IMG/VR virus record: IMGVR_UViG_2529292747_000021
Span: 1-5,990 of that record
DNA from: a virus
Taxonomy: Duplodnaviria; Heunggongvirae; Uroviricota; Caudoviricetes
Direction: 5' to 3' (one strand)
DNA length: 5,990 bases
Below, piece after piece: positions 3,109 through 3,205 of the stretch. Position 1 is the stretch's first letter. Each line of letters opens with the position of its first letter. The position numbers and the translations under genes were made by a program. The notes beneath the pieces are model-generated. The model worked only from the letters and a program-made list of their open reading frames with translations. It ran no database searches and was not told the DNA's origin.

Positions 3109-3205
3109 ACCTTCCTCGGTTTAGTGTTTTTTTGCGAGTTTAGTGTTTAATAAACCATTAAGTCAAGTATTTGCTTGTTTAGTGATTACTAAAGATAATT
3201 ACCAC
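3109..3205. promoter_or_regulatory. Divergent promoter/operator region between ydaS (minus) and paaR2 (plus)
   Basis: Three direct copies of GTTTAGTG at 3119-3126, 3138-3145 and 3177-3184. Minus-strand promoter candidate: -35 TTGACT (+ strand 3161-3166) and -10 TAAACT (+ strand 3137-3142). Plus-strand candidate: -10 GATAAT at 3194-3199, 6 nt before the paaR2 ATG. Confidence 0.55.

Follow-up and report, generated by a model that had tools for sequence, protein, structure and literature searches.

The region examined here is the 97-bp interval ACCTTCCTCGGTTTAGTGTTTTTTTGCGAGTTTAGTGTTTAATAAACCATTAAGTCAAGTATTTGCTTGTTTAGTGATTACTAAAGATAATTACCAC that separates the divergent genes ydaS and paaR2 in the window, the 5,990-nt stretch of viral DNA analysed as a whole (Table 1). 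As first described, it runs exactly from the ydaS start codon (CAT at 3106-3108, minus strand) to the paaR2 ATG. Many E. coli O157:H7 chromosomes match positions 2700-3700, which correspond to the CP-933P immunity region, at 100% identity, and one of them shares 99.9% identity with positions 1-4348. That identity stops at 4348, and a 90% match picks up at 5476. Among complete E. coli genomes, none covers more than 88% of the window and there is no full-length match; judged by these matches, positions 4349-5475 are a mosaic early-left region.

All 100 residues of YdaS align with residues 1-100 of PDB 8c7k, 'antirepressor Cro' (E=1.5e-63), and the protein matches the Pfam families YdaS_toxin (3.3e-12) and HTH_3. 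Residues 1-71 of PaaR2 align with PDB 7nkv, 'repressor CI' (E=5e-41), with further 'repressor CI' matches to 8c3k and 8c3l, and a Pfam scan of the 123-aa protein returned no domain match. The PDB matches support the Cro-like and CI-like assignments made in the preliminary description. On the right, paaA2-parE2 forms an antitoxin/toxin cargo co-transcribed with paaR2; beyond ydaS lie YdaT and then the replication genes, an O-like HTH/DnaD_N protein and a DnaC/IstB-like ATPase. The longest paaR2 ORF in the window begins at GTG 3143 rather than at 3206. In two RefSeq records (L001, NZ_AP018488.1, and L005, NZ_CM172482.1) paaR2 is labelled 'hypothetical protein' and ydaT 'toxin YdaT family protein', and in L005 the repressor CDS is annotated from 1499, 72 nt upstream of the conserved leaderless ATG (1571).

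Table 1 Genes, promoters and operators of the switch region, in window positions
Feature	Position	Strand	Description and basis
ydaS	2806..3108	-	Cro-like HTH regulator, 100 aa; ORF, Pfam, PDB
Divergent promoter/operator region (OR)	3109..3205	.	97 bp, ydaS start codon to paaR2 ATG at 3206
paaR2	3206..3577	+	CI-like repressor, 123 aa, begins MQKKE; ORF, PDB
paaA2	3598-3789	+	Antitoxin; Pfam PaaA2 1e-19, RefSeq annotation
parE2	3791-4069	+	Toxin; Pfam ParE_toxin 1.9e-16, RefSeq annotation
IR4	3119..3136	+	First GTTTAGTG copy; half-site fit by left arm only
IR3	3138..3155	+	Second GTTTAGTG copy; GTTTAGTGT with partner arm TTAATAAAC
IR2	3157..3174	+	Degenerate dyad in published map; ATTAAGTCA, 6/9
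IR1	3177..3194	+	Third GTTTAGTG copy; GTTTAGTGA with partner arm TTACTAAAG
PR933P	3137..3166	-	-35 TTGACT (3166-3161), 18-bp spacer, -10 TAAACT (3142-3137); consensus scan
PRM933P	3171..3206	+	-35 TTGCTT (3171-3176), 17-bp spacer, -10 GATAAT (3194-3199)
OL/PL933P	4141..4181	+	Dyads 4141-4158 and 4163-4180; downstream of parE2
PL933P hexamers		+	-35 TTGACT (4154-4159), 16-bp spacer, -10 TAAACT (4176-4181)
YdaT (CII-like) high-affinity box OM	2799..2816	+	Exact TTGATTTTCATGAATCAA (TTGATTN6AATCAA), 0.04 expected

The octamer GTTTAGTG occurs as exact plus-strand copies at 3119-3126, 3138-3145 and 3177-3184, spaced 19 and 39 bp apart as the preliminary description had it. All three lie inside the ydaS–paaR2 gap, and there is no other copy in the 5,990 bases; shuffled sequence holds a mean of 0.14 matches, and none of 200 dinucleotide-preserving shuffles gave three. 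The repeat finder lengthens the unit to 11 nt, GTTTAGTG(T/A)TT, in three occurrences, and reports both a 24-nt direct repeat (3131-3154 versus 3170-3193, 83% identical) and inverted pairings. Our data favour reading the three copies as the left arms of 18-bp dyads rather than as stand-alone direct repeats. With a degenerate fourth dyad, they form a ladder, IR4-IR3-IR2-IR1, at 19/19/20-bp spacing, with a half-site consensus of approximately GTTTAGTAA. Within the 18-mers, 7/9 positions of IR1 and 6/9 of IR3 are self-complementary, and IR4 and IR2 are half-conserved.

The dyads are interleaved with the -35 and -10 elements of both divergent promoters, in agreement with the layout initially proposed for the repeats. 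IR3 overlies the -10 box and spacer of PR933P, which drives ydaS-ydaT and the replication genes, and IR1 exactly occupies the PRM spacer; the PRM -10 box ends six bases before the paaR2 ATG, which gives the PRM hexamers the spacing expected from the published leaderless start. The -35 boxes of PR and PRM stand back to back between IR3 and IR1, and IR2 consists chiefly of these two boxes. IR4 lies in the ydaS leader, immediately upstream of the ydaS Shine-Dalgarno. The coordinates of the inverted repeats and promoter hexamers come from our own mapping and not from the published work, and the PR933P hexamers and start site were likewise inferred in this analysis. We also considered a fifth operator at 3077-3094, where the strong half-site GTTTATTAA (3086-3094, minus strand) falls within the first codons of ydaS and belongs to a 21-nt inverted repeat with 3142-3162. 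This candidate was set aside: only its right arm fits and the left is poor, it lies in coding sequence, and its position and orientation are not conserved. The site lies past IR4 by ~25 bp, away from the stretch between IR4 and IR1 (3119-3194), whose length corresponds to that of the published PaaR2 footprint.

A second, distant set of operators is found at PL, ~1 kb from OR, where the promoter hexamers are identical to those of PR933P. A bare search for GTTTAGTG with one mismatch gave 8 matches against 4.7 expected and is uninformative by itself; only with a half-site matrix derived from the relatives could the OL sites be told apart from background. The preliminary description was right to give the 97 bp the role of an OR, but they are not the whole operator set, as OL/PL also belongs to the switch. 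The region thus combines the features of a lambdoid OR: divergent repressor and Cro-like HTH genes around a short intergenic region, back-to-back sigma-70 promoters within it, repeated dyad operators overlapping those promoters, and a distant OL. On the far side of ydaS, the OM box, a type of site defined in PMC9986795, spans the ydaS stop/ydaT start junction in the PRE933P region. An Rfam scan of the window found no structured RNA in the switch region, and its sole match was a full-length DicF antisense RNA at 5754-5805 on the plus strand (RF00039, 76.9 bits).

The switch is already known, and its published characterisation used the very sequence seen here. For the same 97 bp, Jurenas et al. 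2021 (mBio, PMC8630535) combined EMSA and DNase I footprinting with 5′ RACE, promoter–gfp fusions, flow cytometry and single-cell analysis of bistability, and our region matches in length and sequence the fragment they used for EMSA and footprinting. Apart from mutation of single repeats, the experiments put forward as checks in the preliminary description (footprinting, EMSA and reporter fusions) are therefore in print. 5′ RACE placed the PRM933P transcription start at the A of the paaR2 ATG, making the mRNA leaderless, and mass spectrometry together with N-terminal sequencing (MQKKE) confirmed translation from this ATG; for PR933P, too, 5′ RACE and promoter activity are reported (PMC8630535). 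PaaR2 and YdaS each shift the 97-bp fragment specifically and stepwise. PaaR2 protects ~78 bp of it from DNase I and YdaS ~65 bp, with one stretch of 27 bp and another of 32 bp, and the two footprints overlap each other and both promoters (PMC8630535). YdaS binds first on the PRM side, and its own promoter becomes occupied when the concentration is raised (PMC8630535).

Each protein represses both PR933P and PRM933P. At low PaaR2, PR and PL are repressed and PRM rises ~4-fold, and at high PaaR2 PRM is shut as well; PL933P, with its operators OL1-3, is repressed ~100-fold by either protein, and YdaT activates a PRE-like promoter (PMC8630535). A dual-colour reporter revealed two heritable states, RAE2-on and ydaST-on, that need both regulators (PMC8630535), which bears out the suggestion that this is the decision point for bistable expression of the toxin-antitoxin module versus the replication operon. 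Beyond the 2021 mBio, 2023 Acta D and Rac papers, our literature search yielded no later operator mapping and no paper on a PaaR2/YdaS-DNA structure.

The published map comprises four 18-bp inverted repeats, with IR1 over PRM, IR3 over PR, and one poor half in each of IR2 and IR4; it also proposes three longer 'pseudosymmetrical' direct-type operators, OR1-OR3, over IR1, IR3 and IR4 (PMC8630535). In the comparison with this mapping, another step suggested at the outset, the window is 100% identical here to the CP-933P region, and the OR1-OR3 locations coincide with the three GTTTAGTG copies. Of the early proposal of an OR-like operator set bound by PaaR2 and/or YdaS, the binding has been confirmed, but the sites are published as four 18-bp dyads and not as three direct 8-mers. 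The IR4-IR1 span of 76 bp agrees in size with the ~78-bp PaaR2 footprint, and the 57-bp IR3-IR1 span plus flanks would fit the two-part 65-bp footprint of YdaS.

To see which bases have been retained, we collected relatives by tblastn of a phage collection (several phages) and a scan of one genome per species, giving 56 loci that encode homologues of the PaaR2 N-terminal domain in Enterobacterales, Burkholderiales, Pasteurellaceae, Neisseriaceae and Nitrosomonas. The DNA upstream of these genes shows a striking resemblance from locus to locus. We aligned 47 distinct switch regions from gamma- and beta-proteobacteria and phages with window positions 3100-3212, and calculated per-base conservation from 45 sequences, leaving out the window and the near-identical phage Evi. 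In these 45 relatives, the IR3 arms AGTTTA (3137-3142) and TAAAC (3151-3155) are conserved at >=0.8-0.9, a value that for AGTTTA is confounded with the PR -10 box (TAAACT). The PR -35 box, GTCAAG on the plus strand (3162-3167), is invariant or near-invariant, as is the block that follows it, TTTGCTTGTTTA at 3170-3181, which takes in the conserved PRM -35 box TTTGCTT (3170-3176). The IR1 arms GTTTAG (3177-3182) and CTAA (3189-3192) and the key PRM -10 bases A3195 and T3199 are conserved as well, and the centres of IR3 and IR1 vary freely. Conservation within IR2 coincides with GTCAAG and TTTGCTT. Across the family, conservation is limited to the IR3 and IR1 arms, the two -35 boxes and the PRM -10 box.

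The first of the three GTTTAGTG copies behaves differently. Conservation across 3119-3126 is <=0.4 per base in the 45 relatives, and in the 44 relatives scored for half-sites none has a half-site at this offset; among the loci compared, the 3119 copy is confined to CP-933P and phage Evi. A 9-nt half-site matrix trained on the relatives' IR1 arms only gave IR1 (3177) the best score in the window. Its top ten of ~12,000 window positions were 3177, 3138, 3119, 4141, 4170, 3147(-), 3086(-), 4172(-), 3145 and 3186(-), all of them in OR or OL bar 3086, just within ydaS.

A divergent YdaS homologue is present in 52 of the 60 fetched loci, and phage Evi alone among these 60 carries paaA2-parE2. In most loci 44 nt separate the conserved core from the repressor ATG, indicating that the leaderless geometry is conserved too. 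In Photorhabdus/Xenorhabdus loci (L006-L013, L021) this distance is 92-123 nt instead of 44, which probably reflects an inserted leader and a repressor mRNA that is not leaderless. Five Pasteurellaceae loci (L047, L049, L054-L056) have extra GTTTAG half-sites between the -35 boxes and also ~20 bp upstream of the IR3 equivalent; additional operators seem, from this distribution, to have been gained independently there, as IR4 was in CP-933P.

PaaR2 homologues fall into two length classes (L004, L024, L025, L031, L042, L047, L052, L055 and L059 compared with 3206-3577). Those of 206-252 aa join a PaaR2-like DNA-binding domain to a Peptidase_S24 (LexA/CI-type) C-terminal domain, and those of 118-135 aa, PaaR2 included, have a different C-terminus with no Pfam match. 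Because both classes share the operator module, it serves SOS-cleavable and non-cleavable repressors alike. Within the window, the PaaR2 N-terminal domain and YdaS (3206-3400 versus 2806-3108) are 35% identical over 46 aa (E=1e-4) and have in common the motif SYLSQ[LM]xSGR in the presumed HTH region, which is consistent with the two proteins reading the same sites.

Taken with the published experiments, these data lead us to interpret 3109-3205 as the OR of the switch of CP-933P, a lambdoid cryptic prophage, in which each of the three GTTTAGTG copies supplies the conserved left arm of an 18-bp dyad operator; we put the probability of this reading at roughly 0.9. The strongest competing view is that the functional units are three head-to-tail direct operators of ~24 bp (TTTGCnnGTTTAGTGnTTAnTAAA; the published 'OR1-OR3'), bound in tandem. 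Both the 83% identity of the 24-nt repeat and the threefold 11-nt unit are what such operators would produce, and PMC8630535 left the choice between direct and inverted repeats open. The comparison with 45 relatives nevertheless makes it unlikely: conservation falls on both arms of each dyad, TTTGC is conserved only as the PRM -35 and reaches <=0.3 at 3131-3135, and the copy at 3119 is wholly absent from relatives. Regulators of the HTH_XRE type, moreover, generally bind dyads as dimers. Dyad-arm conservation thus favours inverted-repeat recognition over the direct-repeat model.

It is more improbable still that the repeats are by-products of promoter elements with no separate operator role. 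GTTTAG does complement the -10 TAAACT of PR and PL, the 3138 copy overlaps the PR -10 box, and the PL -10 at 4176-4181 is likewise TAAACT. No promoter hexamer, however, is formed by the copies at 3177 and 3119 or by the right arms (3151-3155 and 3189-3192), and the arms of IR1 and IR3 are conserved nonetheless. The region is also protected by purified PaaR2 and YdaS, and each of the two promoters is repressed by these proteins (PMC8630535). Recurrence by chance in AT-rich intergenic DNA, or an origin as replication iterons as the 19-bp spacing and the replication genes downstream of ydaS-ydaT might suggest, deserves hardly any credence, since the shuffles rule out a chance origin, the sites adjoin the PaaR2-like domain gene between divergent promoters in 44/44 relatives scored, and footprints assign them to PaaR2 and YdaS (PMC8630535).

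Competition between PaaR2 (the CI analogue) and YdaS (the Cro analogue) over PR and PRM has been shown to result in mutual repression and bistability (PMC8630535). In the dyad-operator reading, dimers of the HTH proteins would read the dyad arms GTTTA-N8-TAAAC, and IR3 and IR1 would be the ancestral core operators. IR4 may have been added to this core and may carry PaaR2 occupancy onto the ydaS leader, and IR2 could be kept chiefly because it holds the two -35 boxes. OR may further pair with OL, ~1 kb away, via PaaR2 oligomers; such cooperation is plausible because PaaR2 forms octamers (cited in PMC8630535). The comparative data narrow the bases read by PaaR2 and YdaS to the arms of IR1 and IR3. 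To the published switch we thus add that the 8-mers are dyad arms, that a deeply conserved core of two operators includes two of the three copies, and that the 3119 copy is an extra site found, among the loci compared, in CP-933P and phage Evi only.

The core is preserved nearly base by base in the 45 relatives, which suggests one operator specificity common to distant hosts. A broader proposal, to which we give even odds, is that the CP-933P OR is one member of an old and widespread switch cassette whose operators have stayed near-unchanged while C-terminal domains were swapped and extra operators were acquired lineage by lineage. Its components would be a DNA-binding domain like that of PaaR2, a Cro of the YdaS type, two GTTTA-N8-TAAAC dyads, back-to-back -35s and a leaderless repressor gene. 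Its operator sequence would have been kept from Enterobacterales to Burkholderiales, Nitrosomonas and Pasteurellaceae, the repressor C-terminus alternating between an SOS-cleavable S24 domain and a PaaR2-type oligomerisation domain, and operators being added at 3119 in CP-933P/Evi and elsewhere in Pasteurellaceae. If this is true, one cross-reacting immunity group would extend across distant hosts.

The published work already establishes that this element decides between the PaaR2-PaaA2-ParE2 and YdaS-YdaT-replication sides of the CP-933P immunity region. The element is also a documented case in which a phage switch, and not the antitoxin itself, governs a toxin-antitoxin pair. At a canonical, autoregulatory type II toxin-antitoxin operator, the antitoxin, alone or in complex with the toxin, binds through a DNA-binding domain of its own; here the 63-aa PaaA2 matches only the PaaA2 'stability determinant' family. 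PaaA2 has no DNA-binding motif, control being supplied by PaaR2 and YdaS (PMC8630535), and OR is therefore not a canonical antitoxin-bound operator.

Compared with known systems, the element is the same as that of the CP-933P/Sp12 immunity region of E. coli O157:H7 (PMC8630535), and the switch itself is without any difference: the 97-bp intergenic region, the leaderless paaR2 encoding MQKKE and the half-site consensus GTTTAGTAA are all shared. CP-933P and the window diverge past 4348, where the window is mosaic. The likeness to lambda OR lies in the divergent repressor and Cro-like genes, the back-to-back promoters under repeated dyad operators and the competition of both proteins for the same sites with opposite preference order, and extends to a leaderless repressor mRNA, activation of PRM by low repressor, second operators at PL and bistability (PMC8630535). 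Despite these similarities, PaaR2 and YdaS have no detectable sequence similarity to CI or Cro (PMC9986795). In our Pfam scan YdaS scored 16.2 bits against P22_Cro, below the 30.2 cutoff, and PaaR2 had no match; the two are functional analogues of CI and Cro, not members of their sequence families. Lambda has three operators, whereas the published map of CP-933P shows four 18-bp dyads that follow one another every 19-20 bp, and the CP-933P toxin-antitoxin pair replaces rexAB. PaaR2 also differs from CI in lacking the LexA-like Peptidase_S24 autocleavage domain, for which it gave no Pfam match, and is not SOS-responsive; the published work found no peptidase motif and no response to mitomycin C (PMC8630535).

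The racR-ydaS region of the Rac prophage in E. coli K-12 resembles CP-933P in its repressor/YdaS/YdaT layout, three inverted-repeat operators and leaderless repressor transcript (PMC9638921), and its YdaT box is nearly identical to that of CP-933P and cross-recognised (PMC11879457). The operator sequence, (T/A)TAGGC-n3-GCCTA(T/A), is unrelated, however, and one RacR operator overlaps coding sequence (PMC9638921). Rac YdaS does not repress racR, and unlike CP-933P YdaT, the YdaT of Rac binds the intergenic region (PMC9638921, PMC11879457). Other proteobacterial cassettes with a PaaR2 N-terminal domain and YdaS occur, for example, in Klebsiella phage 5 LV-2017, Burkholderia phage vB_E177 and prophages of Photorhabdus, Proteus, Yersinia and Pasteurellaceae. 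None of them has the 3119 (IR4) copy, and many carry a Peptidase_S24 C-terminal domain in place of that of PaaR2. They share with the window a divergent YdaS homologue, a repressor N-terminal domain that is 44-76% identical, and the core AGTTTA-N8-CTAAAC ... GTCAAGTATTTGCTTGTTTAG-N6-CTAATCAAAAT-N6-ATG.
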